Shown here in pieces: positions 1,467 through 19,224 of a stretch of 64,000 bases of DNA. The DNA is from Planctomycetota bacterium (lineage in GTDB: Bacteria; Planctomycetota; B15-G4), in contig JBBQUR010000019.1 of assembly GCA_038212275.1 (NCBI GenBank), forward strand, positions 1 to 64,000, read 5' to 3'. The first letter of the stretch is position 1; each line of letters begins with the position of its first letter. Made by a program: the position numbers and the translations under genes. Under the pieces are notes generated by a model. It saw only the letters and a list, made by a program, of their open reading frames with translations. It made no database searches and was not told the DNA's origin.

Positions 1467-1497
1467 CGCAACGCAGTAGTTGCTGAACGCAACGCCC

Positions 1498-1532
1498 AAC
1501 GCCCCGGCACCCCCCTCGGGGGCCGGGGCGTT
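1498..1532 (+). other. GC-rich intergenic stem-loop between groES and groEL
   Basis: AACGCCCCGG(1498-1507)/CCGGGGCGTT(1523-1532) with an inner C/G stem; no U-tract. Confidence 0.65.
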
Positions 1533-1546
1533 CGGCGTACCGCTGA

Positions 1547-3199
<1,653 letters not shown>

Positions 3200-3467
3200 G
3201 CGGCCTGATCCGCGGGAGCACGTCCACGGACGTCGCCTCACGGACCAAGCAGCTTCACCGGCACGGCAATCCTGCCGTTCCGTTCCCGGAAGCGCGTCGA
3301 CGCGGCATGCCGCGCGGCGCGCTTCCGGCGTCTTCCGGGCCTGTTCTCACGCCCGTTCTCACGCCTGGCCCGCGGCGGGTCGGCCGCTTCCGACGGAGTT
3401 GCGCCACATCGCGCGGGGCGGAAGCACTTTCGCAACTTCGAGCAAAGAGCTAAGTTCTTGGTGTGAC

Positions 3468-3488
3468 TGTTCCGGACTCGCCGGAACA
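3468..3488. promoter_or_regulatory. Perfect 8-bp inverted repeat downstream of a -10-like hexamer; candidate operator or 5' hairpin of the heme/copper cluster
   Basis: TGTTCCGG-ACTCG-CCGGAACA; TAAGTT at 3451-3456. Confidence 0.4.
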
Positions 3489-3559
3489 CGTCGCGGCGGA
3501 GCGCACCATGAGGACGGTCCGCACCCGATCCACTTCTCCCGTTCGAGGATGAGAACTCC

Positions 3560-4378
3560 ATGATGCTTGCCGAGACCCTGACCGCCGTGCTCCTGCTCAC
3601 TGTCGCGTGCGCCGACGAAAGCCCCGCGATCTCCGACAACGCTCCCGCCGCGCAGCAGGCGGTGGCCGCCGCCGCGACGAACGTCGTCGCGACGACTCCT
3701 GCGGTCGTGCACGAGGCCAAGATCAGCGGCGCCGCCAAGGGCGTGATCCGCGGCACCGTCAAGTTCGAGGGCGATGCCCCCGAGCGCGGCAAGGTGGACC
3801 TCTCGCCCGACAAGGTCTGCGCCGACGATCACAAGGACGGCATGGCGACCCCGGGTGGCGTGCAGGTCGGCACGGGTGGCGGGCTGATGGACGTGTTCAT
3901 TCAGCTCACCAGCGGAGTGCCCGAGTCCAAGGCCGAGGCTCCGGCCGAGGCAGCGGTCATCGACCAGATCGGCTGCACCTACGTGCCGCACGTCCTCGGC
4001 GTGATCAAGAAGCAGAAGATCGAGATCCTCAACAGCGACGCGACGCTGCACAACATCCACGCGCAGCCGAAGACCAACAAGGAGTTCAACCTCGCGATGC
4101 CCAACAAGGGCGACAAGCGCGAGGTCGAGTTCAAGAAGGACGAGCAGGCGATCCACATCAAGTGCGACGTGCATCCGTGGATGTCGGCCTACGTCTTCTC
4201 GATGGAGCACCCGTACTTCGCCGTGAGCGGCGCGGACGGCAGCTTCAGCATCAATCTCGGCGAGCTGCCGGACGGCGAGTACGGCGTCAAGCTCTGGCAC
4301 GAGGTGCTCGGCACGCAGGAAGGCAAGGTGACCGTCAAGGACGGCGCCGGCAGCTTCGACTTCACCTACAAGAAGTGA
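3560..4378 (+). CDS. Lipoprotein with cupredoxin-like and carboxypeptidase-regulatory-like beta domains
   Basis: Lipobox-like LTVAC; DQIGCTYVPHV, LHNIH, CDVHPWM motifs; first gene of the oxidase maturation cluster. Confidence 0.75.
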   Translation: MMLAETLTAVLLLTVACADESPAISDNAPAAQQAVAAAATNVVATTPAVVHEAKISGAAKGVIRGTVKFEGDAPERGKVDLSPDKVCADDHKDGMATPGGVQVGTGGGLMDVFIQLTSGVPESKAEAPAEAAVIDQIGCTYVPHVLGVIKKQKIEILNSDATLHNIHAQPKTNKEFNLAMPNKGDKREVEFKKDEQAIHIKCDVHPWMSAYVFSMEHPYFAVSGADGSFSINLGELPDGEYGVKLWHEVLGTQEGKVTVKDGAGSFDFTYKK

Positions 4379-4410
4379 GCTGAGTTCCGGGTGCCGGCGG
4401 CAGGTTGCGC

Positions 4411-5580
4411 ATGAACAGCCGACCGGACCGCGGCACGACGGCCATCGCCCCGGGCGCCCACGCGCCCGGGGCGATGGCGTTTCCGGAGGGCGCCGCGAGC
4501 CCCGGGGGCGCCGGCGCGGCAACGGCCGCTGGCGCGCCGCCTCGCGACGGCATCGCACGCGGCGCGGCCGCGCAGCACGGCAGCGCGATGCCCTCGGCGG
4601 CGCGGCGCCGCTACGGCGCCTTCCTCGTGCTGGCCACGCTCTTCCTCATTTTCTCGGGCGCCGAAGTGAAGAGCCGGCAAGCCGGGCTCTCGGTGCCCGA
4701 CTGGCCGCTGTCCTACGGGATGTGGTGGCCGCCGATGGTCGGCAACGTGTTCTTCGAGCACGGGCACCGCGTGATCGCCGCCACGCTCGGTCTGCTCATC
4801 GTCATCATGGCGGCGTGGACCGCGCGCACCGAGCCGCGGCGCTGGGTTCGCACGCTGGCGTGGTCGGCGCTCGGCGCCGTCATCGCGCAGGGCCTGCTCG
4901 GCGGCCTCACGGTGATTCACCTGCTGCCGCCCGCGCTGTCGATGAGCCACGGCATCCTCGCGCAGACGCTGCTCTGCGCGTTGACGTGGCTGGCCTACGC
5001 GACATCCGTGGAGTGGTTCGCACGGCGCGACGGCGCGCTGCAGGCCGACGCGGATCGGCGCCGCCGCGCGCTGCGCACGGCTGGCTGGGCCGCGGGCGCG
5101 GTCTACGTGCAACTCATCCTCGGTGCGCTCATGCGCCACAACGAGGCGGGCCTCGCCGTGCCCTTCTTCCCGACCTCGCCGACGGGCGCGCTGCTGCCGG
5201 ACCTCATCGACCTGCCGGTCGTGCTGCACATGCTGCATCGCGGCTTCGCGGTCATCGTGCTGCTGCTCGTGCTGCTGGCGGCGTGGCGCGTCGCGCAGGC
5301 CTGGCGGCATCTCGCACGCCATGCCTCGCTGCTGGCCGGCCTCGTCTGCGCGCAGGTGCTGCTGGGCGCCACGATCATCTGGACCGCGCAGCGCGACCCG
5401 GACTCGGAGACGGCCTGGATCAAGATGCCGGTGCCCGCCTCGCTGCACGTGCTTCTCGGCGCGGGCCTGCTGGCCACCGCGTGGCTGCTGTGCCTGCGTT
5501 GCTGGCGCGCGTCGCCCACCTCGCGAGCAGCGCTCTCGTCGGCTGCGTCGCCCGCTGTTCCCGCCGGCGCTGACCGATGA
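4411..5580 (+). CDS. ctaA: Heme A synthase, COX15/CtaA family
   Basis: AGLSVPDWP, FFEHGHR, HGILAQ, HMLHR, SLHV histidine motifs in a multi-TM protein; start uncertain. Confidence 0.85.
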   Translation: MNSRPDRGTTAIAPGAHAPGAMAFPEGAASPGGAGAATAAGAPPRDGIARGAAAQHGSAMPSAARRRYGAFLVLATLFLIFSGAEVKSRQAGLSVPDWPLSYGMWWPPMVGNVFFEHGHRVIAATLGLLIVIMAAWTARTEPRRWVRTLAWSALGAVIAQGLLGGLTVIHLLPPALSMSHGILAQTLLCALTWLAYATSVEWFARRDGALQADADRRRRALRTAGWAAGAVYVQLILGALMRHNEAGLAVPFFPTSPTGALLPDLIDLPVVLHMLHRGFAVIVLLLVLLAAWRVAQAWRHLARHASLLAGLVCAQVLLGATIIWTAQRDPDSETAWIKMPVPASLHVLLGAGLLATAWLLCLRCWRASPTSRAALSSAASPAVPAGADR

Positions 5581-7142
5581 GCGCGCGACTCGATGCTACC
5601 GGCCTGTCGGGCTTGCTGCGTCCGCGCATCGCGGTGCTCGTGCTCGCCGAGACGGCCGCTGCCTTCCTGCTCGAGCGGCCTGCATCACTGGCGGCGCTGC
5701 CATGGTTGCTGCTCGGCACGCTGCTCGTGTCGGGCGCGGGCTGCGCGCTCAATCACTGGCTCGAGCGCGACACCGACGCGCTCATGCCGCGCACTGCCGT
5801 CCGCCCGCTGGTGACCGGCGCGCTCTCGCCGCGCACGGTGCTCGTCGGCAGCGGCCTCGCGCTGCTGGCCGGCCTCGCGCTGCTGTGGTGGCGCTGCAAC
5901 CCGCTCACGTCGGGACTGCAACTGCTCGCGGCGGTCATCTACCTCGGCATCTACACGCCGCTCAAGCGGCGCACGTCCACCAACACGTGGATCGGCGCGA
6001 TCCCCGGCGCGATGCCCGTGCTGGCCGGCTCGGCCGCCGCCAGCGGCGCGATCTCGCGCCTGTCGCTCATCGTGTTCGCGCTCGTCTTCCTCTGGCAGCT
6101 GCCGCACTTCTTCGCCATCGCGTCGATGTACCGCGAGCAGTACAGGCAGGGCGGACTGCGCATGCTCTCCGGCGACGACCCGCACGACGAGCTGCTGCGC
6201 TGGCAGCTCCCCATGATGGTCATGTCGGTGATGCTCGTCTCCGCGCTGCCGGTCATCGCGGGGCCCGCGCGCGCGATCTACGGGCTGACGGCGCTCGTCT
6301 TTGGCGGCATCTTCCTGTGGGCTGCGTTCCGCTTCCGCACGCAGCCCGACCGGCCCGGCGCGCGCCGCGTCGTGCTTGCCTCCGTGGCCTACCTGCCGCT
6401 CGTGCTCGGCGCGCTGGTCATGGACGTGGCCTGCGTCGGCCGCACCGATCAGTCCGGGGGCGCAGCCGGCTCCGCGCCGCACGCCGCATCGCCCTCCGCA
6501 TCTGCATCCGCGGCAGGGCGGCCGACGGCAGCCTCCGCGTCCGACGGCACCGGCCTGCCGGACCACGGCCCGGTGCCGGACTTCCAGCTCATCTCGCAGG
6601 AGGGCGTCCCCTTCACCCGCGTCGACATGGCGGGCGAGGTGTGGATCGTGGACTTCATCTTCACCAGCTGCTCGGGCATCTGCGTGCCGATGACGCGCAC
6701 CTTCGTGGATCTCCAGCTCGAACAGCTCCCGGCGCACTACCTCTCGGTGAGCGTGGACCCGAAGCGCGACAGCCCGGCCGTGCTCGCGGAGTTCCGCCGC
6801 AAGTGGGAGGGCGACGACCAGCGCTGGATGCTGGCCACCGGCACGGCGCAGGCCGTCGAGGCCCTCGGCAACGACGGCTTCCACCTGCCCGTGGGAACCG
6901 GCGCCACGCCGGTGGAGGGCATGCCCTCGCTCTTCCACAGCGAGCGCTTCGCTCTGGTGGACCGCCGCGGCCGCGTGCGCGGCTACTACGACAGCAGCGA
7001 CAAGCTCGAACTCGCGGCGCTGCGGCGCGACGTGGCGCTGCTGGCGGCGTTGCCGGCGCCGTCGGGCGAGGAGTCCGTCCCCGCGACGTCGATCGACGCG
7101 CCTTCGCCGTCGGCCGAGTCGCCCGTGCTGCCCGGCCATTGA
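5577..7142 (+). CDS. ctaB: Protoheme IX farnesyltransferase (heme O synthase) fused to a C-terminal SCO1/SenC domain
   Basis: NHWLERDTDALMPRTAVRPL, YTPLKR, FLWQLPHFFAI (CtaB/CyoE); then FIFTSCSGICVPM (CxxxC), SVSVDPKRDSP, HSERFALVD (SCO). Confidence 0.88.
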   Translation: MSARLDATGLSGLLRPRIAVLVLAETAAAFLLERPASLAALPWLLLGTLLVSGAGCALNHWLERDTDALMPRTAVRPLVTGALSPRTVLVGSGLALLAGLALLWWRCNPLTSGLQLLAAVIYLGIYTPLKRRTSTNTWIGAIPGAMPVLAGSAAASGAISRLSLIVFALVFLWQLPHFFAIASMYREQYRQGGLRMLSGDDPHDELLRWQLPMMVMSVMLVSALPVIAGPARAIYGLTALVFGGIFLWAAFRFRTQPDRPGARRVVLASVAYLPLVLGALVMDVACVGRTDQSGGAAGSAPHAASPSASASAAGRPTAASASDGTGLPDHGPVPDFQLISQEGVPFTRVDMAGEVWIVDFIFTSCSGICVPMTRTFVDLQLEQLPAHYLSVSVDPKRDSPAVLAEFRRKWEGDDQRWMLATGTAQAVEALGNDGFHLPVGTGATPVEGMPSLFHSERFALVDRRGRVRGYYDSSDKLELAALRRDVALLAALPAPSGEESVPATSIDAPSPSAESPVLPGH

Positions 7143-7167
7143 GCCGGCGGACGGCCGCCACCCGCTC

Positions 7168-7608
7168 ATGAGCCAGCCGGCCTTCCACGCGACACTCAAT
7201 GCCCTTGCCGCGGTGCTGCTCTGCCTGGGCTGGATGGCGATCCGCGGCGTCGGGCCGTGGGCGGCAGGCGGGCGGCGCCCGACCACGCATCGCAACCTCA
7301 TGCTCGCGGCCTTCGGCGTCTCGACCGTCTTCCTCGCCAGCTATCTGGAGTACCACGCCCGCGTCGGCTCGGTGCCGTTCTGGGGCACGGGCGCGCTGCG
7401 GACGCTGTACCTCGTGGTGCTGGTGCCGCACATCGTGCTCGCGGCGGTCATGGTGCCGCTCATTCTCGTCACGCTGGTCCACGCGCTGCGCGGTCGACTG
7501 GACCGCCACCGGGTCTGGGCGCGCTGGACGCTCCCGATCTGGCTCTACGTCTCAGTGACGGGCGTCCTCGTCTACGTGATGAACTACGCCATGGCCCCCG
7601 GCGGTTGA
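7168..7608 (+). CDS. DUF420 family membrane protein (oxidase-associated)
   Basis: NALAAVLL, HRNLML, FLASYLEYH, HIVLAA, ARWTLPIWLYVSVTGVLVY signature; follows SCO. Confidence 0.85.
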   Translation: MSQPAFHATLNALAAVLLCLGWMAIRGVGPWAAGGRRPTTHRNLMLAAFGVSTVFLASYLEYHARVGSVPFWGTGALRTLYLVVLVPHIVLAAVMVPLILVTLVHALRGRLDRHRVWARWTLPIWLYVSVTGVLVYVMNYAMAPGG

Positions 7609-7631
7609 CCGCGCCCCGCGCGGCCCGCGCG

Positions 7632-7718
7632 ACCCGCGCGACTCGCCTGTCCGTGCGATCCGCCGCGAACCCGCGCGACCCGCCTGTCCGCCTGCCCGCG
7701 CGATCCGCCGCGAACCCG
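7632..7718. repeat. Imperfect intergenic direct repeat, 2 copies, with an internal duplication
   Basis: ACCCGCGCGAC(T/C)CGCCTGTCCG...GCGATCCGCCGCGAACCCG occurs twice. Confidence 0.6.
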
Positions 7719-7893
7719 TGCCGTGTCGAGGCGGCGGCGGCTCCCGGGCCGGTATCGCGCGCGCACGGCGTGCCCTACAATCCGTAGCCCTTCCCTGCGT
7801 CGCGCGACGACCTGCGGACCGCGCGACGGCCGTTCGGGGTGCCCCGGCCTGCCGACACCCGCGCCGTCTTCACGAGGCTGTCGCAGGCTTTGC

Positions 7894-7954
7894 TTGTGCC
7901 GGACCGACGGCTGCCGTTACCATCGGCATAACTTCCCTCTTATGCGCATATGCA
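7894..7954 (+). promoter_or_regulatory. Putative arg operon promoter with an adjacent palindromic operator
   Basis: TTGTGC(7894)-18 nt-TACCAT(7918), then GCATAA-N8-TTATGC (7926-7945) and ATATGCA, an AT-rich island resembling ARG-box half-sites. Confidence 0.4.
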
Positions 7955-8006
7955 GCGCGGCGGCTGCCGCGCGCCCGACTCGCCACCGCTTCTCGCGGAC
8001 CACACG

Positions 8007-9401
8007 ATGAAGACCATCGTCCTTGCCTTCTCCGGCGGACTCGACACCTCCTTCTGCGCGGTCTACCTGCGCGAGCAGACTCGTGCCGACATCGTGACGG
8101 TCTGCGTGGACACCGGCGGCTTCACGGCCGAGGGCCTCGCCGCCGTCGAGGCGCGTGCGCGCGCGCTCGGCGTGAAGGATCACCGCACCGTGGACGCGCG
8201 CGCCGACGTGTGGACTCGCTTCGTCAGCTACCTCATCAAGGGCAACGTGCTGCGCGGCGGCGTCTACCCCGTGTCGGTCGGTTGCGAGCGCACGGCGCAG
8301 GCGGAGGCCGTCGTGGCCGTGGCGCGCGAGCTGGGCGCCGACGCCGTGGCGCACGGCTCGACGGGCGCCGGCAACGACCAGGTGCGCTTCGACGTGGCCA
8401 TCGGGGCGAAGGCGCCGGGCCTCGCCATCCTCACGCCGATCCGCGACCTCAACTGGTCGCGTGTGCAGGAGGCCGAGTGGCTCGCCGAGCGCGGCATCTC
8501 CGTGCCGGCGGGCACCGTGAGCTACTCGCTCAACGAGGGCCTGTTCGGCACGACGATCGGCGGCAAGGAAACGCACGACCCGTGGAAGCTGCCGCCGGAC
8601 GCGGCCTACACGATGACCGTGCCCGCCACGCAGGCCGCTGCGGAGCCCGAAGAGCTGGTCATCGGCTTCGAACACGGCGTGCCCGTCACGCTGGACGGCC
8701 GGGCGCTCGACGGCGTGTCGCTCGTCACGGAGCTGAACCGCCGCGCGCGCCCCCACGGCGTGGGACGCGGCGTGCACGTCGGTGACACGATCCTGGGGCT
8801 CAAGGGGCGCATCGCTTTCGAGGCTCCCGCGCCGCTCATCATGATCCGCGCGCATCGCGAGCTGGCCAAACTGGTGCAGACCAGGTGGCAGGCTTACTGG
8901 GCCGAGCAGGCCGGCACCTTCTACGGCATGCTGCTGCACGAGGGCCTGTTCTACGACCCGGCGATGCGCGACCTGGAAGCGCTGCTCGACAGCGCGAACG
9001 AGCGCGTTGGCGGCGAGGTGCGCGTGCGCCTGTACCGCGGCAATCACGACGTGGTCGGCGTGCGCTCGCCGCACTCGCTGCTGAACCCCGCCATCGCGGT
9101 GTACGGCGAGGGCGCCTCGGCCTGGACCGGCGAGCAGGCGGCCGGCTTCGCGCGCATCCACGGCCTCCCGTCGATGCTCGCCGCACGCCGCGACGAACTC
9201 GCGCCCGCAACGAACGCGCCCGCAACGAACGCTCCCGCAACGAGCGCTCCCGCAACGAGCGCTCCCGCAACGAACGCGGCCGCAACGAACGCGGCCGCAA
9301 TCGGTTCGCCCGGTGCGGACGCGCAGGACGGCACCGAGAGCAAGGACAGCAAGTCGCCGGCCGGCCCGCGGGCCGCCCGGAAGGAGAGTTCAGGAACATG
9401 A
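8007..9401 (+). CDS. argG: Argininosuccinate synthase (Bacteroidetes-like subtype) with a repeat-rich C-terminal tail
   Basis: VLAFSGGLDTS, HGSTGAGNDQVRFD, GDTILGLKGRIAFEAPA. Confidence 0.96.
   Translation: MKTIVLAFSGGLDTSFCAVYLREQTRADIVTVCVDTGGFTAEGLAAVEARARALGVKDHRTVDARADVWTRFVSYLIKGNVLRGGVYPVSVGCERTAQAEAVVAVARELGADAVAHGSTGAGNDQVRFDVAIGAKAPGLAILTPIRDLNWSRVQEAEWLAERGISVPAGTVSYSLNEGLFGTTIGGKETHDPWKLPPDAAYTMTVPATQAAAEPEELVIGFEHGVPVTLDGRALDGVSLVTELNRRARPHGVGRGVHVGDTILGLKGRIAFEAPAPLIMIRAHRELAKLVQTRWQAYWAEQAGTFYGMLLHEGLFYDPAMRDLEALLDSANERVGGEVRVRLYRGNHDVVGVRSPHSLLNPAIAVYGEGASAWTGEQAAGFARIHGLPSMLAARRDELAPATNAPATNAPATSAPATSAPATNAAATNAAAIGSPGADAQDGTESKDSKSPAGPRAARKESSGT
9201..9300 (+). repeat. 15-bp in-frame tandem repeat (~6.7 copies; APATN/APATS/AAATN)
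   Basis: GC(G/T)(C/G)CCGCAACGA(A/G)C units read directly. Confidence 0.95.
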
Positions 9402-10441
9402 AGATCCGCCCGCACAAGGTCGGCAGCGTCGTGCATCGCCTCAAGCTCGGCCCCGAGCTGGACATCAGCCGCATGGTCGATGCGCGCTCGGGCCAGGTGC
9501 TCGTCGTGAGGGCGCTCGAGGAGAAGCGCGTGTACGACGTGATGGAGCTCACGACGGGGCGCATGGCGCACGTCGGCAAGGGCGACGTGATCGTCGGCGC
9601 CCTCGGCCGGCGCGACGCGCTGCGCGGCTTCGTCGGCCGCGTGCCGACGTCCGTGAAGGCGGGCGACACGCTGCACCTGCTCAACCTGGGCGGCGTCATC
9701 GGCCAGGTCATCTCGGAGAACAAGGACCTCGGGCATCCGCTGCGCGTCGAGGTGCTCGGCATGGCGCTGCGGGAGGACGGCAAGGGCATGAACATCGCGG
9801 ACGCGGCGCTCGGCGAGCCGCCGGCCGCCGCGCGCACGCCGCCGGTGATCCTCGTCTCCGGAACCTGCATGAATGCGGGCAAGACGCTTGCGGCGTGCGA
9901 GATCATCGCGCGGCTTACGGAGCGCGGCTACGTCTGCGGCGGCGCCAAGCTCACCGGCGTCGCGGCGCAGCGCGACACGCTCAACATGGCCGACCACGGC
10001 GCGGTGCACACGCTGTCCTTCGTGGACCTCGGCCTGCCCAGCACCGCGGGCATGACCGAGATGGCGCCCATCGCCAAGCGCCTGCTGCGCTGGGTGGAGA
10101 CCGAGGCCGGCCAGGAGCTGGACGTCGTCGTGGCCGAGGCCGGCGACGGCATCATCGGTGCGTACGGCGTCGAGTCCATCCTCAACGACCCGGAGTTCAT
10201 GGAGCTCGTGCAGGCGCACGTGCTCTGCGCGAACGACCTCGTCGCGGCGTGGGGCGGCATGAACTGGCTGCGCGAGCGCGGCATCGAAGTGGACTGCATC
10301 GCCGGCCCGGCCACGGACAACGACGTGGGCATGGACTACATCCGCAACAGCCTCGGCCTGCCCGCGTCCAATGCGCGCACCGAGCCCGACAAGCTGGCGG
10401 ACATCGTGGAGAAGGCCGCCTTCGAGGGCGTGCTCACGTGA
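9398..10441 (+). CDS. DUF1611/DgcN-like P-loop-fold protein; candidate glutamate N-acyltransferase replacing ArgA
   Basis: ATGA overlap with argG; GALGRRDALRGF, VSGTCMNAGKT (P-loop-like), GAKLTG, DLGLPST, VAEAGDGI motifs. Confidence 0.7.
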   Translation: MKIRPHKVGSVVHRLKLGPELDISRMVDARSGQVLVVRALEEKRVYDVMELTTGRMAHVGKGDVIVGALGRRDALRGFVGRVPTSVKAGDTLHLLNLGGVIGQVISENKDLGHPLRVEVLGMALREDGKGMNIADAALGEPPAAARTPPVILVSGTCMNAGKTLAACEIIARLTERGYVCGGAKLTGVAAQRDTLNMADHGAVHTLSFVDLGLPSTAGMTEMAPIAKRLLRWVETEAGQELDVVVAEAGDGIIGAYGVESILNDPEFMELVQAHVLCANDLVAAWGGMNWLRERGIEVDCIAGPATDNDVGMDYIRNSLGLPASNARTEPDKLADIVEKAAFEGVLT

Positions 10442-10538
10442 TCGGCGTGCACGGCGCGATCCGGCCGAGCGCCGCGACGGCGAGACCGCGCGCATGCGGA
10501 ACTCGTCGATGCGGAGCACGTCGCTGCGGAGTTCGTCG

Positions 10539-11627
10539 ATGAGCAAGGGCGAGTTCTACGGCGCAGGCACCGCGCCGCGCACGGAGGCCGCCAGCGACAC
10601 GGCGAAGCGCACGCTGCGCGCCGCCATCGTCGGCGGCACGGGCTACGGCGGCATGGAGCTGCTGCGGCTGCTGCTCGATCACCCGCGGGTCAAGGTGACG
10701 GCCATCACGTCGCGCACCGAGACCGGCGCGCTGGGCGACGTGCACCCGCACCTGCGCGGCTTCACGGAGCTGTCCTTCACGTCCGGCCGGGCGACGGAGC
10801 TGGCGCGCAGCAACGACGTGCTCTTCTTCGCAACGCCGCACGGCGTGTCCGCCAAGGAAGCGCCCGGCGTGCTGGACGAGGTGCCGGACGTGAAGATCGT
10901 CGACCTCTCCGGCGACTTCCGGCTGGACAGCGCCGCGGCCTATCACGAGCACTACGGCAAGGTGCACCCGCATCCCGAGCGCCTCGGGGACGCGGTGTAT
11001 GGTGCGCCGGAGTGTGGCGCTCGCGAAGAGATTGGCCGCGCGCGCCTCGTCGCCAATCCGGGCTGCCACGCGCTGGCGACGATTCTCGCGCTGTGGCCGC
11101 TGGCGCAGGCAGGGCTCATCGACGGCCCGGTGGCAGTGAGTTCCGTGACCGGCAGCTCGGGCTCCGGCGCGACGCCGGGCCAGGGCACGCATCATCCCGA
11201 GCGCTTCTCCAACTTCCGGGCCTACAAGCCGCTGCAGCACCAGCACCTGCCGGAGATCGCGCGCGCCCTGCCCGGCGGCGTGACGCTGCACTTCGTGCCG
11301 CACAGCGCGCCGTTCGCGCGCGGCATCCACGTCACGGCCTTCGTGCCGCTGGGCAAGGACAACGAGGCCGCGGCGCACCACGCGCTGCAGAGCGCCTATG
11401 CGCACGAGCCCTTCGTGCGCCTCGTGCCCGGCACGCCGGAGGTGCGCGCGGTGGTGGGCACCAACTTCGCGGACATCGCCCTCGTGGCGCGCGACGGCAT
11501 CGCGGTGGTCATGGTCGCGATCGACAACCTGGGCAAGGGCATGGCGGGCACCGCCGTGCAGAACATGAACCTGATGTTCGGGCTGCCGGAGACCACGGGT
11601 CTGCGGCGGCCGGGGCTCGGGCTGTGA
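10539..11627 (+). CDS. argC: N-acyl-gamma-glutamyl-phosphate reductase
   Basis: IVGGTGYGGMELLRLL, VDLSGDFRL, VANPGC, IDNLGKGMAGTAVQNMN; start may be 10494-10539 (15-bp imperfect repeats there). Confidence 0.95.
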   Translation: MSKGEFYGAGTAPRTEAASDTAKRTLRAAIVGGTGYGGMELLRLLLDHPRVKVTAITSRTETGALGDVHPHLRGFTELSFTSGRATELARSNDVLFFATPHGVSAKEAPGVLDEVPDVKIVDLSGDFRLDSAAAYHEHYGKVHPHPERLGDAVYGAPECGAREEIGRARLVANPGCHALATILALWPLAQAGLIDGPVAVSSVTGSSGSGATPGQGTHHPERFSNFRAYKPLQHQHLPEIARALPGGVTLHFVPHSAPFARGIHVTAFVPLGKDNEAAAHHALQSAYAHEPFVRLVPGTPEVRAVVGTNFADIALVARDGIAVVMVAIDNLGKGMAGTAVQNMNLMFGLPETTGLRRPGLGL

Positions 11628-12982
11628 CGGATTCCGCAGACGGGAGCGAGGCCGCTCCGGCGGACTCCGCAAGGAAGGGGAAGGCCATGACGGCAGGTCC
11701 GGAAAGTTCGAGGACGGGAGGCAAGACGGCAGCATCCACAGCGAGCACGTCGAGCACGGCGAGTGCGGCGAGCACCGCCGGCGCAGTCGCCGGGAGCATC
11801 GCGTCGCACTGCGCCGGGAGCAGTGCGGAGGTCGCGGCCATCGAGGACCGCTGGCAGCTCCCGACCTACGCCAAGATGCCGATCGCACTCGTGCGCGGCG
11901 AAGGCAGTTACGTGTGGGATGCCGAGGGGCGCCGCTACCTCGACCTTTATGGCGGTCATTGCGTGGCGCTTGCGGGGCACTGCCACCCACGGCTCGTGTC
12001 CGCGATCCGCGAGCAGGCCGGCCGCCTGCTCTTCTACAGCAATGTCGTGTACAGCGACGTGCGTGCGCTGGCCGCCGAGCGTGTCGCCGGGCTGGCGCCC
12101 GCCGGGCTGCAGAAGGTCTTCTTCTGCAACAGCGGCACGGAGGCCAACGAGACCGCGCTGAAGCTTGCGCGCAAGCACACGGGCCGCAAGCACGTGATCT
12201 CCATGGCCGACGGCTTCCACGGCCGCACGCTCGGTTCGCTCGGCGCGACGGGCCTGTCCAAGTATCGCGACCCGCTCTATCCCGTCCCCGTGGAGCACAC
12301 CTACGTGCCCTACGGCGATCTCGACGCGCTCGCTGCCACGATGGACAAGGACATCGCCGCCGTGATGCTCGAGGCGATCCCGTCCATGGGCGGTATCCGC
12401 GTCGCGTCCGACAACTACTACCAGGGCATGCGCCGCCTCTGCGACCGGCACGGCGCGCTGCTCATCTTCGACGAGGTGCAGAGCGGTTTCGGCCGGACCG
12501 GCACGCTGTTCTTCGGCGAGCAGGTGGGCGTGCGGCCCGACCTCATCACCGGCGCGAAGGGCGTCGCGGGCGGCGTGCCGGCGGGCGTCGTCTTCGTGCG
12601 CGAGGACATCGCGGCGCGCGTGCAGCACGGCGACCAGGGCACGACCTTCGGCGGCGGACCGCTGGCCTCCGTCGCGATGGCGACCGTCGCCGACATCATC
12701 CGCGACGAGCGCCTGCCGCAGAACGCGGCGGCCACCGGCGCCTTCCTCGCGGAGCACGCCGGCGCGATCCGCGGCGTGCGCTCCGTGACGGGCCGCGGCC
12801 TGCTGCTCGGCATCAATCTCGACTGCCCCGCGAAGGACGTCGTCACCGGGTTGCGCGGCCACGGCATCCTGGCCGGCACCTGCGAGGGCGACAAGAACCA
12901 GATCCGCCTGCTGCCGCCGCTGACGCTCGCTCCCGGGGAACTGGGCCCGTTCTTCACCGCGCTGGCGACCCTGCTGGCATGA
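11624..12982 (+). CDS. argD: N-acyl-ornithine aminotransferase (class III PLP)
   Basis: YLDLYGGH, FFCNSGTEANE, FHGRTLG, IFDEVQSGFGRTG, GAKG, GTTFGGGPLA; GTG11624 or ATG11687 start. Confidence 0.92.
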   Translation: MTDSADGSEAAPADSARKGKAMTAGPESSRTGGKTAASTASTSSTASAASTAGAVAGSIASHCAGSSAEVAAIEDRWQLPTYAKMPIALVRGEGSYVWDAEGRRYLDLYGGHCVALAGHCHPRLVSAIREQAGRLLFYSNVVYSDVRALAAERVAGLAPAGLQKVFFCNSGTEANETALKLARKHTGRKHVISMADGFHGRTLGSLGATGLSKYRDPLYPVPVEHTYVPYGDLDALAATMDKDIAAVMLEAIPSMGGIRVASDNYYQGMRRLCDRHGALLIFDEVQSGFGRTGTLFFGEQVGVRPDLITGAKGVAGGVPAGVVFVREDIAARVQHGDQGTTFGGGPLASVAMATVADIIRDERLPQNAAATGAFLAEHAGAIRGVRSVTGRGLLLGINLDCPAKDVVTGLRGHGILAGTCEGDKNQIRLLPPLTLAPGELGPFFTALATLLA

Positions 12983-14088
12983 CGGCCGCCCCGGCAAGCG
13001 ATCGCGCCGCTGCGCCGCGACACCTGCTGTCGCTGCGCGACCTGCCGCAAGCCGACTGGGACGAACTGCTCGCCAGCGCCGAGCGGCTCGCCGGCCCGGC
13101 CGGGCGCCGGCCCCTGATCGCAGGGCGCCGCCTCGGCATGCTCTTCTTCAATGCATCGCTGCGCACGCGCACTTCCTTCGAGGTGGCGTGCTTCGACCTC
13201 GGTGCGCATGCCGTGTCGCTGCAGGTCGGCGGCAACGTGTGGAAGCTCGAGTCGCGCGACGGCGTGCGCATGGACGGCGAGGCCGCCGAGCACGTCAAGG
13301 AAGGCATCCCCGTGCTCGGACGCCTGCTCGACGGACTGGGCGTGCGCTGCTTCGCGGGGCTGACCGACGCTGCGGACGACGCGCGCGACCCGCTGCTCTC
13401 CGCGATCGCCGCCGTGTCCACTGTGCCCGTGCTCAACCTCGAATCCGCGATGGATCATCCGCACCAGGGCCTGGCCGATGCGCTGGCGCTGCGCCGGCAC
13501 CTGCGGGGCGAGTCGCCCGTGAGCGTCGCGCCCCGCAGCGCGGCGTCGAGCGGCGGGCCGCGCGGCTCCGACGCCGGGCGGCCCGCGCCGCGCGCGCGCG
13601 TCGTCCTGTCGTGGGCGCCGCATATCAAGCCGCTGCCGCTCGCCGTGCCGCACGCGGCGCTGATGGCCTTCGCGCGCGAGGGCCACGACATCGCGCTCTG
13701 CCATCCGCCGGGCTTCGACCTCGATGCGGGCGTGCTGACCGCGGCGCGCGCAGCCGCCGCCGCCACGGGCGGTTCGCTCTCCGTCGGCAACGACCGCCAC
13801 GGGGCGCTCGACGGCGCGCAGGTCGTGTACGTCAAGTCGTGGGGGGCGCGCGCGCACTACGGCGATGCCGCCGCGGCGGCGTCCGCCTTCGCCACGCACC
13901 GCGACTGGATGCTGACCGGCGCCGATCTCGGACTGGCGGCGTTCATGCACTGCCTGCCCGTGCGGCGCGGGGTCGTGGTCGCCGACGAGGTGCTCGACGG
14001 CGGCCGCTCGCTGGTGCTCGAACAGGCCGGCGCGCGCCTGGACGTTCAGAAAGCGACACTGTGTCGCGCCTTCGGAGTCCCCGCGTGA
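12979..14088 (+). CDS. argF: N-acyl-ornithine carbamoyltransferase (ArgF', AOTCase/SOTCase family; succinyl-type residue)
   Basis: FNASLRTRTSFE, WKLESRDGVRMDGEAAEH, HPHQGLAD, WAPHIKPLP, YVKSW, FMHCLPVRR signatures. Confidence 0.9.
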   Translation: MTAAPASDRAAAPRHLLSLRDLPQADWDELLASAERLAGPAGRRPLIAGRRLGMLFFNASLRTRTSFEVACFDLGAHAVSLQVGGNVWKLESRDGVRMDGEAAEHVKEGIPVLGRLLDGLGVRCFAGLTDAADDARDPLLSAIAAVSTVPVLNLESAMDHPHQGLADALALRRHLRGESPVSVAPRSAASSGGPRGSDAGRPAPRARVVLSWAPHIKPLPLAVPHAALMAFAREGHDIALCHPPGFDLDAGVLTAARAAAAATGGSLSVGNDRHGALDGAQVVYVKSWGARAHYGDAAAAASAFATHRDWMLTGADLGLAAFMHCLPVRRGVVVADEVLDGGRSLVLEQAGARLDVQKATLCRAFGVPA

Positions 14089-14116
14089 CCGCGCACTGGT
14101 CCTCGATACAGGAAGC

Positions 14117-15127
14117 ATGCCGATGAAGGATGCGCTGCTGCTCAAGATCCTCAAGCAGGCGCTGCCCTATCTGCGCCAGCACAAGCACCAGGTCATGGTG
14201 GTGAAGCTCGGCGGCGAGATCGCCGCCAACCCCGACGCGCTGCGCTCGCTGGCCGAGGACATCTCGCTGCTCGTGCACGTCGGCATCAAGATCGTCGTCG
14301 TGCACGGCGGCGGGCCGCAGGCCACGGAGATGTCCAAGCGCCTGGGCATCGAGCCGCTCATGGTGGAGGGCCGCCGCGTCACCGACGAGCAGACGCTGGA
14401 CGTGGCGAAGATGGTCTTCGCCGGCAAGATCAACACCGACATCCTCTCCGCGCTGCGGACGCAGGGCGTGCGCGCCGTCGGCCTCTCCGGCGTGGACGCC
14501 TTCCTCGTGAACGCCGTGCGCCGCAAGCCCACGCAGATGCTCGACGAGACCACGGGGCAGTCGCGCCTCGTGGACTTCGGCTACGTCGGCGACGTGGAGT
14601 CCGTGGACAGCTCGCTGCTCTCGCTGCTCATGGAGAACGGCTACGTGCCGGTGCTCGCGTCGCTTGGCGCCGACGAGAGCGGCGCGATCCTCAACATCAA
14701 CGCGGACACCGTGAGCTCGGTGCTGGCGCAGGACCTGCACGCCGGCAAGCTCATTTCGCTCACGGCGGTGCCGGGCGTGCTGCGCGACCGCAGCGACCCC
14801 GCGACGCTCATCCCGATGCTCACGACGGCCCAGGCGCGCGCGCTGCTGACCAGCGGCGTCATCGCGGGCGGCATGAAGCCCAAGATCGCCGCCATCGTGG
14901 ACGCGGTGGAGCACGGCGTGAAGCGCGGGCACATTCTGTCGGGCGTGCAGCACGGCAGCATCCTGCTGGAGCTTTTCACGCGCGAGGGTTGCGGCACGCT
15001 CATCGCCGGCGAGAGCGAGGCGGCCGAGGCTGCCGCTGACGCGACCTCCGCGGCCATGTCCGACGCCATCGGCAACCAGGCCGGTCGCCTGCCCGGCGCG
15101 TCGCGCACCGTGGGGCGCGGCGCATGA
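14117..15127 (+). CDS. argB: N-acyl-glutamate kinase
   Basis: VVKLGGE, VVVHGGGPQ, GRRVTD, DFGYVGDV, NINADT, GGMKPK. Confidence 0.95.
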   Translation: MPMKDALLLKILKQALPYLRQHKHQVMVVKLGGEIAANPDALRSLAEDISLLVHVGIKIVVVHGGGPQATEMSKRLGIEPLMVEGRRVTDEQTLDVAKMVFAGKINTDILSALRTQGVRAVGLSGVDAFLVNAVRRKPTQMLDETTGQSRLVDFGYVGDVESVDSSLLSLLMENGYVPVLASLGADESGAILNINADTVSSVLAQDLHAGKLISLTAVPGVLRDRSDPATLIPMLTTAQARALLTSGVIAGGMKPKIAAIVDAVEHGVKRGHILSGVQHGSILLELFTREGCGTLIAGESEAAEAAADATSAAMSDAIGNQAGRLPGASRTVGRGA

Positions 15128-16347
15128 GCGAGGTCATCGATCTGCTGCGCGAGCTGGTGGCGCTGCCCTCCGTGTCGGGCGACGAGGCCGCCTGCCGCGA
15201 CCTGCTCATCCGCTGGTTCGAGGCGCGAGGCGTGGAGGTGCGCGCGCACGGCCGCAACGTCATCGCGGTGGTGGAGGGCACGGCGGCTGCGAATCGCGCG
15301 GCGGGCGCGACCTCCGCGGCCGACGCGCGCGGCGGCGAGACGCGCGGCGGCGAGACGCGCGGCGGCGACGCGCATGGCGGCGAGGCGCCCGCTGACGCGC
15401 CGAACACCGGCGACCGCGGTCTGCTGCTCTGCTCGCACACGGACGTCGTGCCGGTCGGTCCCGGCTGGACGCGCGACCCGTGGGATGCGGCGCTGCACGC
15501 CGGCCGCATCTGGGGCCGCGGCAGCAACGATGCGAAGTCGAGCGTGGCGGCGATGGCCGTCGTCGCGGCCTCCGTCGATCCTGCGCGCCTGCACGGCCGC
15601 CTCGTGCTGGCGCTGGTCTGCGACGAGGAGACCGGCGGCGAGGGCATCGAGTCCTGCGGTAAGGACCTGCCCGCGTGCACGGCCGCAGTGGTGGGCGAGC
15701 CCACGGGGCTCGACGCATGCCCCGGCCAGCGCGGCCTGCTGCGCGCCGCCGTCGTCGTGCGCGGGCGGAGCTGCCACGCCAGCCGCCCGCACGAAGGCAT
15801 CAACGCGCTGGAGCTGGCCGCGCACGACGTGCTCGCCATTCAGGGCCTGAAGTTCCCCGAGGAGCACCCGCTGCTCGGCCGCGCGACGCTGCAGGCCACG
15901 GTCATCAACGGCGGCACGCGCCCCAACGTGATCCCCGGCGAGTGCACCATTCTCACCGACGGCCGCCCGACGCCCGCCTACGACAACGGCCGCATGCTGG
16001 CGATGCTGCGCGAGGCGGTGCGCGGTGAGGTCACGGTGAAGAGCGAGCGTTTCCGCCCCGTGGTCACGTCGCCCGAAGAGGAAATCGTCGCGCTCGCGCG
16101 CGCCGCGAGTCCGACGGGCTTGGTGCGCGGCTTCGGCGGCGTGTCGGACCTCTATCACCTGCGCCACCTGCCCGGTGTCGTCATGGGCCCCGGCACGAGC
16201 GCCGCGAGCCATGCGCCGGACGAGTGGGTGGCGATCGAGCAAGTGGAAGCGGCGGTCATTGCCTACGCCAGCATCGTCGAAGGCTATCTCGGCGCGGGTC
16301 GCAGCTCCGTCGTCCCGCTGCCTCGCGCGCAGCCCACGCCCCGATGA
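15124..16347 (+). CDS. argE: M20 family deacylase (N-acyl-citrulline/ornithine deacylase)
   Basis: SHTDVVP, GRGSNDAK, DEETGG, VGEPT, SHAPDEWV; located in the arg operon. Confidence 0.85.
   Translation: MSEVIDLLRELVALPSVSGDEAACRDLLIRWFEARGVEVRAHGRNVIAVVEGTAAANRAAGATSAADARGGETRGGETRGGDAHGGEAPADAPNTGDRGLLLCSHTDVVPVGPGWTRDPWDAALHAGRIWGRGSNDAKSSVAAMAVVAASVDPARLHGRLVLALVCDEETGGEGIESCGKDLPACTAAVVGEPTGLDACPGQRGLLRAAVVVRGRSCHASRPHEGINALELAAHDVLAIQGLKFPEEHPLLGRATLQATVINGGTRPNVIPGECTILTDGRPTPAYDNGRMLAMLREAVRGEVTVKSERFRPVVTSPEEEIVALARAASPTGLVRGFGGVSDLYHLRHLPGVVMGPGTSAASHAPDEWVAIEQVEAAVIAYASIVEGYLGAGRSSVVPLPRAQPTPR
15322..15387 (+). repeat. 15-bp in-frame tandem repeat (DARGG/ETRGG/ETRGG/DAHGG) in an argE loop
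   Basis: GA(C/G)(G/A)CGC(GC/AT)GGCGGC x4. Confidence 0.9.
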
Positions 16348-16976
16348 GCAGCGCGGGGCGGCTCGGCATGCTGTGCCTCATGACGCTGCTGTCCGCGTGT
16401 CACGCGGCGGAGGTCGATGGCGATGGCGGGGCCGTCTTGCAGCCGGTCGACGTGTCGCTCGATGGCGACGCGTCTGCCGAATCGGTGAACGCCCGCGTGC
16501 TCGCTCTCGCCGGCAGCGGCTGGCAGCCGGAGCTGGACGTGCAGCAGGCGATGAACGTGCTGGTGTCCGCTCCCTACTTCGCCACGGCGCGGACGGGACG
16601 TTTGGCGCATCCCGACCCGCAGGCCGTGGCCTTCGTGCGCGTGCTCGTCGATGCGACGGCGGCGACACGCTTCGCGACGCTTGCCGCCGACGACAACGAC
16701 TGTGCGCGCCTGTACGGCCTGTGCGGTCTCTACTTGCTCGACCGCGCGACGTTCGGCGCCGCGATGGAGCGCGAGACGGCAGCGCACGGCTCGGGCGACG
16801 TGATGTTCTGGTACGGCTGCTTCGGAACCACGGTCGACGTCGCACAGATCCTCGAGGCGCCCTTCGCCGCGAATGCCGACGTGTCGCGAGGCGGATTGCC
16901 GCTCGGACTTCTCACGCTGGCCGAAGACTTGAGCCACGAACCCTCCCTGCCCGCACGGACGAGGCCCACTCGATGA
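16344..16976 (+). CDS. Hypothetical lipoprotein inside the arg operon
   Basis: Lipobox LLSAC; ATGA overlaps with both argE and argH. Confidence 0.6.
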   Translation: MSSAGRLGMLCLMTLLSACHAAEVDGDGGAVLQPVDVSLDGDASAESVNARVLALAGSGWQPELDVQQAMNVLVSAPYFATARTGRLAHPDPQAVAFVRVLVDATAATRFATLAADDNDCARLYGLCGLYLLDRATFGAAMERETAAHGSGDVMFWYGCFGTTVDVAQILEAPFAANADVSRGGLPLGLLTLAEDLSHEPSLPARTRPTR

Positions 16977-18511
16977 CCAGACCGAAGTCACGGCAGAAGG
17001 CCGCGTCGACAAGCGTGCGTGCCGGCGCAAAGCGACGTCGCGCCGCACGCACCGGCGCTGCACGCTCGCAGGCGGCAGGCACGGAGACTGCAGGCGCCGC
17101 CGACGGCCTTCTGCGCGGCCGCTTCAGCGGCGGCGTGCACCCGGCGCTCGATGCGATCAATCGCTCGCTCGACGTGGACCGGCGCCTGTGGGCCGAGGAC
17201 ATCGTGGGCTCACTGGCGCATGCGCAGATGCTGGGCAAGGCGGGCATCCTGCCGGCGACCGCGGTGAAGCGCATCGTGGCCGGCCTGCGGAAGGTGGCCG
17301 CGGAGTTCGACGCGGGCACGTTCGCGGTGAAGCCGTCGGACGAGGACATCCACATGGCGGTGGAGCGCCGGCTCACGGAGCTCGTCGGCGAGGACGGCAA
17401 GCGCCTGCACACGGCGCGCAGCCGCAACGACCAGGTGGCGACGGACCTGCGCCTGCACCTCATGGAATCGGGCGAGACGCTGGCCGCCGCCGTGCGCGAG
17501 GTGCAGGCCGCGCTGGTCGTGCTCGCGCGTCGCGACGGCCGCGCCATCCTGCCCTTCTACACCCACCTGCAGCGCGCGCAGCCGATGCTGTTGGGCCACG
17601 TGCTGCTCGCCTACGTGGAGCTGCTCGAGCAGGACCGGCGCGGCCTGCACTACGAGGCGCGCGAATGCCCGCTCGGCGCCGGCGCGGGCGCCGGCACCAC
17701 CTTTCCAATCGATCGCGAGTTCACCGCGCAGGGCCTGGGGTTCGCCGGCCCCTCGCGCAACAGCCTGGAGTCCGTGAGCTCGCGCCGCGACGCGACGATG
17801 TTCGTTGCGGGCCTCGCGGCCTGCGCCGTGACGCTCTCGCGCCTGGGCGCGGACCTCGTGCTGTGGACCTCGCGCGAGTTTGGCTTCGCGCGGCTTGGCG
17901 ACGCCGTCTCCACGGGCAGCTCGATCATGCCGCAGAAGCGCAACCCCGACGGCGCGGAACTGCTGCGCGCCAAGGCCACGCGCGTCTCCGGGGACCTGTC
18001 ACGCCTGCTGGAGCTGCAGCGCGGCCTGCCGCTCGGTTATCACAAGGATCTGCAGGAGGACAAGCCGGCGCTCTTCGACGCGGAGGACACGCTTGCTCAG
18101 ATGCTTGCGGTCGCTGCTGCGATGCTGGCCGACGTGAGCTTCGACCACGCGCGCATGCGCGCCGCCGTGGACGAGCCCTCCGGCTACATGTACGCCACCG
18201 AGGCTGCCGACTGGCTGGTGCGGCACGGCGTCTCGTTCCGTGCGGCGCACGAGGCGGTGGGGGCGCTCGTGCGCGAGGCCGAGCAGCGCGGCGTGGCGCT
18301 CGAGGCGCTGCCGCTGGAGACCTTCCGCGCGGCGCACCCGGCCTTCGCGCCCGACGTCTATGCGGCGCTCACCGCCGAGGCCTCCGTCGCGGCGCGCCGC
18401 TCGACCGGCGGCACGGCGCCCGCCAACGTGGAGCGCGAACTGCTCCGCTGGGAGCACGAACTCGGGCTGGCCTCGGACAAGCCCGCCCGCGCCACGCGCC
18501 GCAAGCGCTGA
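16973..18511 (+). CDS. argH: Argininosuccinate lyase
   Basis: EDIHMAVE, HTARSRNDQVATD, YTHLQRAQP, STGSSIMPQKRNPD, YHKDLQEDK. Confidence 0.97.
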   Translation: MTRPKSRQKAASTSVRAGAKRRRAARTGAARSQAAGTETAGAADGLLRGRFSGGVHPALDAINRSLDVDRRLWAEDIVGSLAHAQMLGKAGILPATAVKRIVAGLRKVAAEFDAGTFAVKPSDEDIHMAVERRLTELVGEDGKRLHTARSRNDQVATDLRLHLMESGETLAAAVREVQAALVVLARRDGRAILPFYTHLQRAQPMLLGHVLLAYVELLEQDRRGLHYEARECPLGAGAGAGTTFPIDREFTAQGLGFAGPSRNSLESVSSRRDATMFVAGLAACAVTLSRLGADLVLWTSREFGFARLGDAVSTGSSIMPQKRNPDGAELLRAKATRVSGDLSRLLELQRGLPLGYHKDLQEDKPALFDAEDTLAQMLAVAAAMLADVSFDHARMRAAVDEPSGYMYATEAADWLVRHGVSFRAAHEAVGALVREAEQRGVALEALPLETFRAAHPAFAPDVYAALTAEASVAARRSTGGTAPANVERELLRWEHELGLASDKPARATRRKR

Positions 18512-18567
18512 CTCCCGCGTCGCGCGCGCCTCCGGCGCGGAGCGCTCAGGCCTGCGACACCCGCCTC

Positions 18568-19224
18568 TCAGGCCTTCGTGTAGATGATCTCGAGCGCCTT
18601 GAAGTGCTTGTCACCGCGCGCTTCCATCATCGTGTACTCGTACTGCGTGTCGCTGATCTTCTTCATGATGCTCTTGGCCGCCGTCGTGCCGCCCTGCATC
18701 GGGTTGCTGAAGGTGCCGCTCCACTTGAAGGCCTGCATCTCTTCGTCCCACGTGCCCGAGAAGTTGGCCATGCCGGTGCTCATGTTGTCGACCCACACCT
18801 CCTCGTACTCCTTCGACATGTTGTTGTAGCCCTGCAGGCCCATGCCGATGAAGTCGCCCGCGGGCGTCTTGCTCGTGAAGTTCTCGACGAGGAAGCGGCC
18901 GTCCATGATCATCGCGAAGCTGGCCGTTCCCGTGGACTCGACCGGCGTCGCGCCGGCGCGCTCCATGGACTTGATCCTGGTGGTCCAGTTGCCCACCAGC
19001 GCCGCGAGACGCTTGTGCGCGTCGCCGGGCATCATTGCCTTCATCATGAGGGCGGCGCCCGGCTGATCCTGACCTGCGGCGGGCTCCCCGGCGGCCTGTC
19101 CCGCGGGAGGATTCGCGGCTCCCGGTGCGTGCTCCTTCGCCGTCGCGTCCTGGGGCCAGGCTGCCGTCAGCACCAGGGTCAGGGCAGAGCAGGCGACACC
19201 GGCGATCACGTATCCGAACTTCAT
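18568..19224 (-). CDS. DUF1579 family secreted protein
   Basis: GAGGAG RBS; signal peptide; PGDAHKRLAALVGNW, MDGRFL, GYNN...WVDNMSTG, EIIYTK. Confidence 0.8.
   Translation of the reverse strand: MKFGYVIAGVACSALTLVLTAAWPQDATAKEHAPGAANPPAGQAAGEPAAGQDQPGAALMMKAMMPGDAHKRLAALVGNWTTRIKSMERAGATPVESTGTASFAMIMDGRFLVENFTSKTPAGDFIGMGLQGYNNMSKEYEEVWVDNMSTGMANFSGTWDEEMQAFKWSGTFSNPMQGGTTAAKSIMKKISDTQYEYTMMEARGDKHFKALEIIYTKA

Follow-up and report, generated by a model that had tools for sequence, protein, structure and literature searches.

The Bacteroidetes arginine pathway of the BT3761/Cabys_1732 type, as far as the text of GapMind 2020 sets it out (PMC7311316), combines an ArgF' carbamoyltransferase of the N-succinylornithine carbamoyltransferase (SOTCase) type with a candidate M20 desuccinylase, uses neither ArgA nor ArgJ, and begins with an enzyme of the GNAT family. 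A different first enzyme was predicted, without experiment, by Price et al. for Steroidobacter, namely the protein ACG33_RS14135 (A0A127FCT3), as a former of N-succinyl-L-glutamate (bioRxiv 2024.10.14.618325; PLoS Genet 2026, PMC13759103). The grounds given in that paper are that the protein never co-occurs with ArgA, that it has weak similarity to DgcN (7XRJ; root-mean-square deviation (rmsd) 5.6 Å, E 1.4e-7), and that the neighbouring ArgF' carries Ala, Pro, Ser or Val in 90% of cases, or 97% with Ile and Thr; the Steroidobacter case is described there as being without argE altogether. DgcN, a D-glutamate N-acetyltransferase of the DUF1611 family, has glutamate as its substrate, and 7XRJ was deposited as an N-acetyltransferase. 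Here we analyze a 64,000-nucleotide stretch of planctomycete DNA (the window; assembly GCA_038212275.1, contig JBBQUR010000019.1), in which the second gene of an arginine operon encodes a protein, called X below, that has a role like the one predicted for the Steroidobacter protein as its best-supported function.

The operon consists of nine forward-strand genes at 8007-18511, argG-X-argC-argD-argF'-argB-argE-lipoprotein-argH, as judged from translations, Pfam and NCBIfam and in the order and positions given by the initial annotation. ATGA stop/start overlaps occur at five of the eight junctions (argG/X, argD/argF', argB/argE, argE/lipoprotein and lipoprotein/argH), in agreement with its description of the genes as mostly coupled. 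The family assignments likewise agree that the operon covers all steps from N-acylglutamate to arginine and has no acyl-transfer enzyme of a type recognized by Pfam or NCBIfam. X itself has no match in these two databases at E<=0.001 and no similarity to GNAT or ArgJ even at E<=10, and its residues 155-163 read GTCMNAGKT, a Walker A motif; the initial annotation had noted this motif and the lack of a GNAT fold. On the basis of gene context, the mutual exclusion with ArgJ and ArgA, and the signature residues of ArgF', the step that is missing from a succinyl-type pathway, N-acylation of glutamate, has X as its best candidate, an assignment that is supported, not proven. X probably forms N-succinylglutamate, whichever of the two donor routes discussed below it takes, and since it has no GNAT domain it would be a non-homologous replacement of the Bacteroidetes GNAT synthase.

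Relatives of X number more than 1,778 in a protein collection clustered at 90%, and at E<=0.001 they fall into 1,423 clusters by representative at 50% clustering. They are also present in Pseudomonadota and Gemmatimonadota, and the cluster records that were looked up, from metagenome-assembled genomes (MAGs) of Gemmatimonadota, Pseudomonadota, Deltaproteobacteria and Planctomycetota, carry just the name 'hypothetical protein'. Among the best 80 of 297 loci encoding a relative, which come from Planctomycetota and Acidobacteriota (Blastocatellia, Pyrinomonadaceae and Chloracidobacterium), X adjoins arginine genes in every one. The nearest gene upstream is argG in 76 loci, and in the remaining four the contig extends for less than 430 nucleotides on that side. 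Downstream, argC-argD-argF'-argB follows in 72 loci; of the eight exceptions six stop within 1.3 kb, and two (L005 and L006) show argG-X alone. In a midpoint-rooted FastTree of 166 sequences all 80 arginine-linked proteins belong to a single clade of 103 leaves (support 0.98) and eight paralogs from loci without arginine genes form a separate clade, a grouping that is descriptive in that the label is the feature counted. Two observations link X to the second step of the pathway: it stands beside argB alone in one genome (G104), and it is fused to an amino-acid kinase domain in one protein found on four contigs. The other fusions, with ArgC (one protein of more than 608 residues), with an M20 domain and with a receiver domain, are singletons, and all of the fusions together are too few to be weighed as Rosetta-stone evidence.

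The paralogous clade has 27-36% identity to X (238-287 bits) and was found at L142-L146 and L148-L150 (genomes G135, G115, G007, G094, G079, G002, G088 and G187). Its members have no arginine neighbours and occur mostly in genomes with ArgJ or with a second, arginine-linked X. At five paralog loci, in ArgJ-bearing or two-copy genomes, the neighbours include a thioredoxin-like protein, an L,D-transpeptidase, a sigma factor, BamA, a sigma-54 activator and an ABC transporter; they share no common theme and give no clue to chemistry. The receiver-domain fusion is protein P0256.

Across genomes, X and ArgJ largely exclude each other. The window's own assembly (4.65 Mb in 40 contigs, with 91% completeness) has no ArgJ, and no full ArgA was found in it, the only match to ArgA being the kinase part of argB itself (151.6 bits against a cut-off of 202.85); this answers a check suggested by the initial annotation, as does the wider profile. 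Taken as patterns and not as statistics, given that related genomes do not count independently and that MAGs miss part of the sequence, the counts in 201 evenly sampled Planctomycetota genomes are 70 with X, 76 with ArgJ, five with both and 60 with neither, and no genome of the 201 has an ArgA over the cut-off. At the ortholog level (at least 328 bits) X is found in 64 of these genomes, of which just one, G104, has ArgJ; the other four genomes with both carry the distant paralog alone (238-257 bits). Among 151 Acidobacteriota genomes, X was found in 44 (38 at 357 bits or more) and ArgJ in 33, both being present only in G241, where X is weak and paralog-level, so that ArgJ accompanies ortholog-level X in 0 of 38; these counts include the unpublished G227 and G252, without which X is found in 42 of 149, 36 of them at the ortholog level.

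The X homolog of G104, a 12.3-Mb genome, has 40% identity and, together with argB and no other arginine gene, stands next to the gene of an IS200-like transposase (L147, G104:C165:9700-26800). Many of the genomes with neither gene may lack or miss the arginine pathway: of five that were probed, four have no ArgC match to the window ArgC at E<=1e-20. One genome of this kind, a 9.3-Mb planctomycete of 36% G+C (G008), has a LysX-ArgC/LysY-LysZ-LysJ-(TrpS)-LysK cluster (L151, G008:C1:9173100-9193000), a carrier-protein (LysW-type) cluster that is a third route of amino-group protection in the phylum.

The nature of the acyl group was assessed from ArgF'. According to the text of PMC4581275, N-acetylornithine carbamoyltransferase (AOTCase) is marked by E92, N185 and K302, and SOTCase by A/S/P/V/Q, P and V/I/E at these positions; the same position-90/92 rule is applied in the corresponding text of GapMind 2020 (PMC7311316). 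The best PDB matches of the window ArgF' are Xanthomonas AOTCase chains, with 3L02 at the top, and alignment to 3L02, 3L05 and 3M4N, in which chain numbering is offset by 20 from native AOTCase, places A103, P220 and V333 at the three Xanthomonas positions. Chain position 112 (native 92) is Glu in 3M4N and Ala in 3L02, and the window ArgF' also has Ala. By the published signature the window ArgF' is thus predicted to fall squarely in the SOTCase type, as had been claimed for it. In 58 X-linked ArgF' proteins from the examined loci the triad is T/P/I in 48, A/P/V in four, and A/P/I and P/P/V in one each, which makes 54 readable at all three positions, with four more having T at position 92 and the later positions lost to the contig end. 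Position 92 is accordingly T in 52, A in five and P in one, and none of the 58 has E, N or K of the AOTCase signature at any of the three positions.

One alternative is that X acylates glutamate with an acetyl group or another dicarboxylate and that the ArgF' signature misleads, for acidobacterial lineages at least. The NCBIfam name of the ArgF' family, 'N-acetylornithine carbamoyltransferase', speaks for this, as does Thr92 in 52 of the 58 proteins, a residue outside those tested; against it, Glu92 is found in none of them, Pro occupies the N185 position in all 57 that are readable, and the A/P/V triad of the window is itself a published SOTCase signature. We consider this alternative very improbable, and the succinyl assignment is less certain for the acidobacterial than for the planctomycete ArgF'.

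A structural model of X was obtained with AlphaFold from an alignment of 78 family sequences (predicted local distance difference test (pLDDT) 97.4, predicted template modelling score (pTM) 0.94). It has two domains, an all-beta domain with one short helix (residues 1 to ~125) and a P-loop domain of the SIMIBI class (residues ~145-347). Within the family the Walker A pattern GxxxxGK-T ends in T in 77 of 78 sequences and in S in one, K162 and K184 do not vary, and of the acidic residues D193 is replaced by E in three sequences (D in the other 75) and E247 is at least 90% conserved; conserved residues of the N-terminal domain include E50 and R72. A phmmer search with X against the sequences of solved structures found nothing at E<=10, whereas the family profile gave 42 PDB matches at this threshold, which cover P-loop stretches alone and include FtsY/SRP54, BioD (E 7e-5) and MobB but no DUF1611 chain. 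Compared with 48,161 PDB representatives, the P-loop domain resembles the DUF1611 protein TM0796 (2G0T, Z 16.1), BioD (15.9 and 15.8), ApbC, DUF1611 2OBN and CTP synthase (15.1 each), HypB (14.5), DgcN 7XRJ (14.3), formyl-tetrahydrofolate (formyl-THF) synthetase (13.5) and UreG (13.4). In this model-based comparison the matches are effectively tied, and the fold class is common and not specific to DUF1611. Foldseek placed BioD first (E 4.4e-7) and 7XRJ sixth (E 8.5e-6, rmsd 6.1 Å). The N-terminal domain, modelled alone with pLDDT 91.9, has its best match at Z 3.9 (LexA/signal-peptidase-like), and not one of the 48,161 chains reached Z>=5. The lack of a usable match is not in itself proof of a new fold.

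The initial annotation had described motifs of X as DUF1611-like. In the family search this likeness comes down to a single sub-threshold match in the P-loop, to PF07755 (DUF1611_C; residues 146-178, 12.8 bits against a cut-off of 25, E 0.079), and X departs from DUF1611 both in its N-terminal domain and in the diagnostic motifs. X and DUF1611 have in common a two-domain architecture of ~340 residues with a C-terminal SIMIBI P-loop fold (Z 14.3-16.1) and the succession G-T-x-x-x-x-G-K, then T-G, then E-x-G-x-G. However, PF17396 (DUF1611_N) has no match in X at E<=10, and the N-terminal domain of DUF1611 is Rossmann-like where that of X is all-beta. Where X has GKT, the invariant K184 followed by L-T-G, and E-x-G-D-G, DUF1611 has GK-[M/R]-x-T, ATGQTG and EGQG; the three solved chains (7XRJ, 2G0T and 2OBN) and the DUF1611 protein of the genome itself all have GK-M/R and ATGQTG and no second lysine. 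Membership of X in the DUF1611/DgcN family was therefore rejected on three counts, namely the Pfam threshold, the family motifs and the type of N-terminal domain. The genuine DUF1611 gene of this genome lies away from the arginine genes (G000:C11:52891-53481; locus L100:1471-2595, minus strand), matches both Pfam domains (203 and 86 bits; PF17396 at E 1.6e-24) and adjoins a pyridoxal phosphate-dependent (PALP) enzyme. True DUF1611 also occurs in ArgJ-bearing Planctomycetota genomes (27 of 101 sampled).

BioD has the same P-loop fold as X (Z 15.9), the canonical GKT, a further conserved lysine that follows strand 2 and a motif resembling E-G-x-G-G. It is also the slightly better profile-profile match: hhalign paired X with 27 planctomycete BioD sequences at 60% probability (E 8.5e-5, 40 columns of the P-loop region, with K184 falling on the conserved BioD lysine) and with 30 DUF1611 sequences at 33.5% (E 4.4e-4, 44 columns of the P-loop region, stopping before K184), both reference alignments having been built from automatically picked open reading frames (ORFs). 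Unlike X, BioD has no N-terminal beta domain, and X, for which bioD (TIGR00347) is the best weak NCBIfam match (E 0.0014), reaches 18.8 bits against a cut-off of 83.3; a separate BioD-type gene (129.7 bits) is found elsewhere in the genome. X is thus a SIMIBI-class P-loop protein about equally far from DUF1611 and BioD.

These features bear on the donor. In nucleotide-binding proteins the Walker hydroxyl binds the Mg2+ of the nucleotide, and adenosine triphosphate (ATP)-dependent enzymes of this fold phosphorylate an oxygen for attack by an amine. Chemistry of the acyl-phosphate type is known in dethiobiotin synthetase, CTP synthase, cobyrinic acid amidases and formate-tetrahydrofolate ligase. 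The coupling of free succinate to glutamate would call for just such a reaction, and X could likewise be a Mg-ATP-dependent ligase that converts free succinate to succinyl phosphate and joins this to L-glutamate at the amino group, so that arginine synthesis would start without a coenzyme A (CoA) thioester. We regard this as possible, if somewhat doubtful; it is a live alternative because the canonical GKT Walker A and the invariant BioD-like lysine are both lacking in DUF1611/DgcN. The near-invariant Walker threonine, the conservation of K162, K184, D193 and E247, the alignment of K184 with the BioD lysine, the stronger hhalign and NCBIfam links to BioD, the finding of BioD but not DUF1611 chains by the family profile, and the structural tie of BioD, CTP synthase and formyl-THF synthetase with DUF1611 are all consistent with it. 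On the other hand, the ligase reading is built on motifs, the profile matches span just 40-44 columns, and the conserved GKT could instead bind the diphosphate of CoA. Moreover, all characterized N-acylglutamate synthases use acyl-CoA, and DgcN, the sole known glutamate N-acylating enzyme of the fold class, was deposited as an acetyltransferase.

The presence of the metallochaperones HypB and UreG among the structural matches suggests another role, in which X would be an accessory P-loop protein of the linear succinyl pathway, such as a nucleotide-dependent metal-insertion or assembly factor for the M20 deacylase, or a regulator, and an unrecognized GNAT encoded elsewhere would carry out the acylation. 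The exclusion of ArgJ would suit any component specific to the linear pathway, some paralogs of X occur without arginine genes, one of them fused to a response-regulator receiver domain, and the genome does have GNAT genes, including two GNAT-like ORFs in the window (Acetyltransf_5 and Acetyltransf_6). Yet the columns conserved at 90% or more in the 78-sequence alignment contain no Cys/His metal-binding motif, acidobacterial operons keep X with no argE within 10 kb, the published Steroidobacter case has no argE at all, X pairs with argB alone in G104, and no ArgA-type enzyme was found in the 201 Planctomycetota genomes. An accessory role therefore appears unlikely.

The reading that we tentatively favour is that X is the succinyl-CoA-using first enzyme of a succinyl-type arginine pathway, for which we infer the reaction, the donor and the roles of the domains. 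X would succinylate L-glutamate at its amino group, with succinyl-CoA held by the P-loop domain, in line with the published prediction and with DgcN as the precedent, and with E50 and R72 of the N-terminal beta domain helping to hold the dicarboxylate substrates. ArgB, ArgC and ArgD would process the succinyl-protected intermediate, the SOTCase-type ArgF' would carbamoylate N-succinylornithine, the M20 enzyme ArgE would strip the succinyl group from N-succinylcitrulline, and ArgG and ArgH would complete the pathway. The initial annotation had proposed an L-glutamate N-acyltransferase that may use succinyl-CoA; X does stand as the best candidate for the first step in a succinyl-type pathway, while succinyl-CoA is just one of two live options for the donor.

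Several observations count against the favoured reading. Against succinyl-CoA in particular, the canonical Walker A GK-T and the invariant BioD-like K184 are absent from DUF1611, whose member DgcN provides the precedent for the donor. Thr at position 92, the acidobacterial state of ArgF', is outside the published tested residues. Exclusion of ArgJ is expected for any gene of a linear succinyl pathway and alone does not assign step 1, and G104 carries both ArgJ and X. The search of the window's own genome for a first-step enzyme covered ArgJ and ArgA, in an assembly that is 91% complete, and its GNAT screening was not exhaustive. Finally, X appears to belong to the ACG33_RS14135/A0A127FCT3 family by a match of descriptions, and the table of Price et al. 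gives 'no' for experimental evidence on that family (PMC13759103).

The likeness of X to that family extends to each of the published grounds. Both are hypothetical proteins within arginine operons (here in 80 of 80 loci), neither is found together with the usual first-step enzyme, both have a weak Foldseek link to DgcN 7XRJ (E 1.4e-7 as published and 8.5e-6 here), and the neighbouring ArgF' is non-Glu at position 92 (A103 in the window, and 58 of 58 loci). Unlike the published case, X comes from Planctomycetota, a phylum with no mention in the main text of the paper, and its operon has an argE candidate that the Steroidobacter case lacks. The paper of Price et al. assumes acyl-CoA chemistry, and the Walker A and BioD-like lysine features lie outside its discussion. 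Further literature searches found no other paper on the X family. The initial annotation had held that a succinyl role would be new, but such a role has already been published as a prediction for genes of this kind, and X appears to be a planctomycete member of the predicted family; the value of the planctomycete copy is therefore confirmatory, and it extends the family to a phylum where the operon is complete and has a candidate desuccinylase gene.

In about a third of the Planctomycetota sample (64 of 201) and a quarter of the Acidobacteriota sample (38 of 151), arginine synthesis appears to start with an enzyme that is unnamed in databases, and annotation pipelines therefore score arginine auxotrophy or leave a gap. 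With the predicted function well supported by comparative evidence, the remaining interest is in the chemistry of the donor. If X used ATP and free succinate, it would represent a new enzyme class for the N-protection of amino acids, and the all-beta N-terminal domain, which matched none of the known structures, would then be a new module for substrate binding.

The individual genes of the operon are listed in the table below.

Genes of the arginine operon in the window, with the family evidence for each
Gene	Position	Strand	Assignment	Evidence and remarks
argG	8007..9401	+	argininosuccinate synthase	TIGR00032, 326.7 bits vs cut-off 268.2
X	9398..10441	+	candidate N-succinyl-L-glutamate synthase	347 residues; ATG overlaps argG stop
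argC	10494..11627	+		TIGR01850, 345.9 bits vs cut-off 233.6; start uncertain (ATG 10494, 10509 or 10539)
argD	11687..12982	+	N-acylornithine aminotransferase (class-III)	TIGR00707, 367 bits, under the 410 cut-off
argF'	12979..14088	+	knotted N-acylornithine carbamoyltransferase	NF003384, 336.9 bits vs cut-off 288
argB	14117..15127	+	N-acylglutamate kinase	336 residues; TIGR00761, 240.3 bits vs 151.3
argE	15124..16347	+	argE-like M20 deacylase	TIGR01910, 163 bits, under the 217.6 cut-off
lipoprotein	16344..16976	+	lipoprotein-like ORF	210 residues, LSAC lipobox; end at 16976, not 16946
argH	16973..18511	+	argininosuccinate lyase	512 residues; TIGR00838, 485 bits vs 279.5; no fused acetyltransferase domain

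The argB product consists of the amino-acid kinase domain alone, with no acetyltransferase domain, and argE is a candidate N-succinylcitrulline desuccinylase. The argD start at ATG 11687 is preceded by the purine-rich AAGGAAGGGGAAGG, an alternative being GTG 11624, which overlaps the argC stop. The lipoprotein-like ORF overlaps both argE and argH by ATGA and has a weak match to MchS3 (E 2e-4); the Pfam scan assigned it to no family, and it has no evident role in the pathway. In the nearest relative operon (L002) argE ends at 16568 and argH starts at 16601, which leaves no space for this ORF.

The window has a G+C content of 72%, and its relatives are Planctomycetota MAGs. A scan of 7500-18800 revealed no sigma-70-like promoters and no intrinsic terminators. 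A G+C-rich direct repeat of 45 nucleotides (2.1 copies) lies upstream of argG at 7610-7718, and the 8-bp palindrome GCATATGC at 7946-7953, in an A+T-richer patch ~55 nucleotides before the argG start, is a possible operator or promoter element. Repeats with a 15-nucleotide unit are found at three places within the operon: at 9200-9300 (6.7 copies, in frame), encoding a pentapeptide array in a low-complexity C-terminal tail of ~70 residues in ArgG; at 10494-10541 (3.2 copies), spanning all three candidate argC starts; and at 15283-15388 (7 copies, in frame), encoding a Gly/Glu/Thr/Arg-rich insertion in ArgE. Elsewhere in the window, the GNAT-like ORFs, of the Acetyltransf_6 (FemAB-like) and Acetyltransf_5 types, and a second M20 peptidase are located at 35788-36888 (-), 51634-52473 (+) and 54747-55967 (+), and none of them adjoins arginine genes. 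Upstream of the operon, the region 1134-7608 encodes groES-groEL, a CtaA-like heme A synthase, a fusion of a UbiA-family (CtaB-like) protein with SCO1/SenC, and DUF420, and looks like a cytochrome oxidase assembly cluster.

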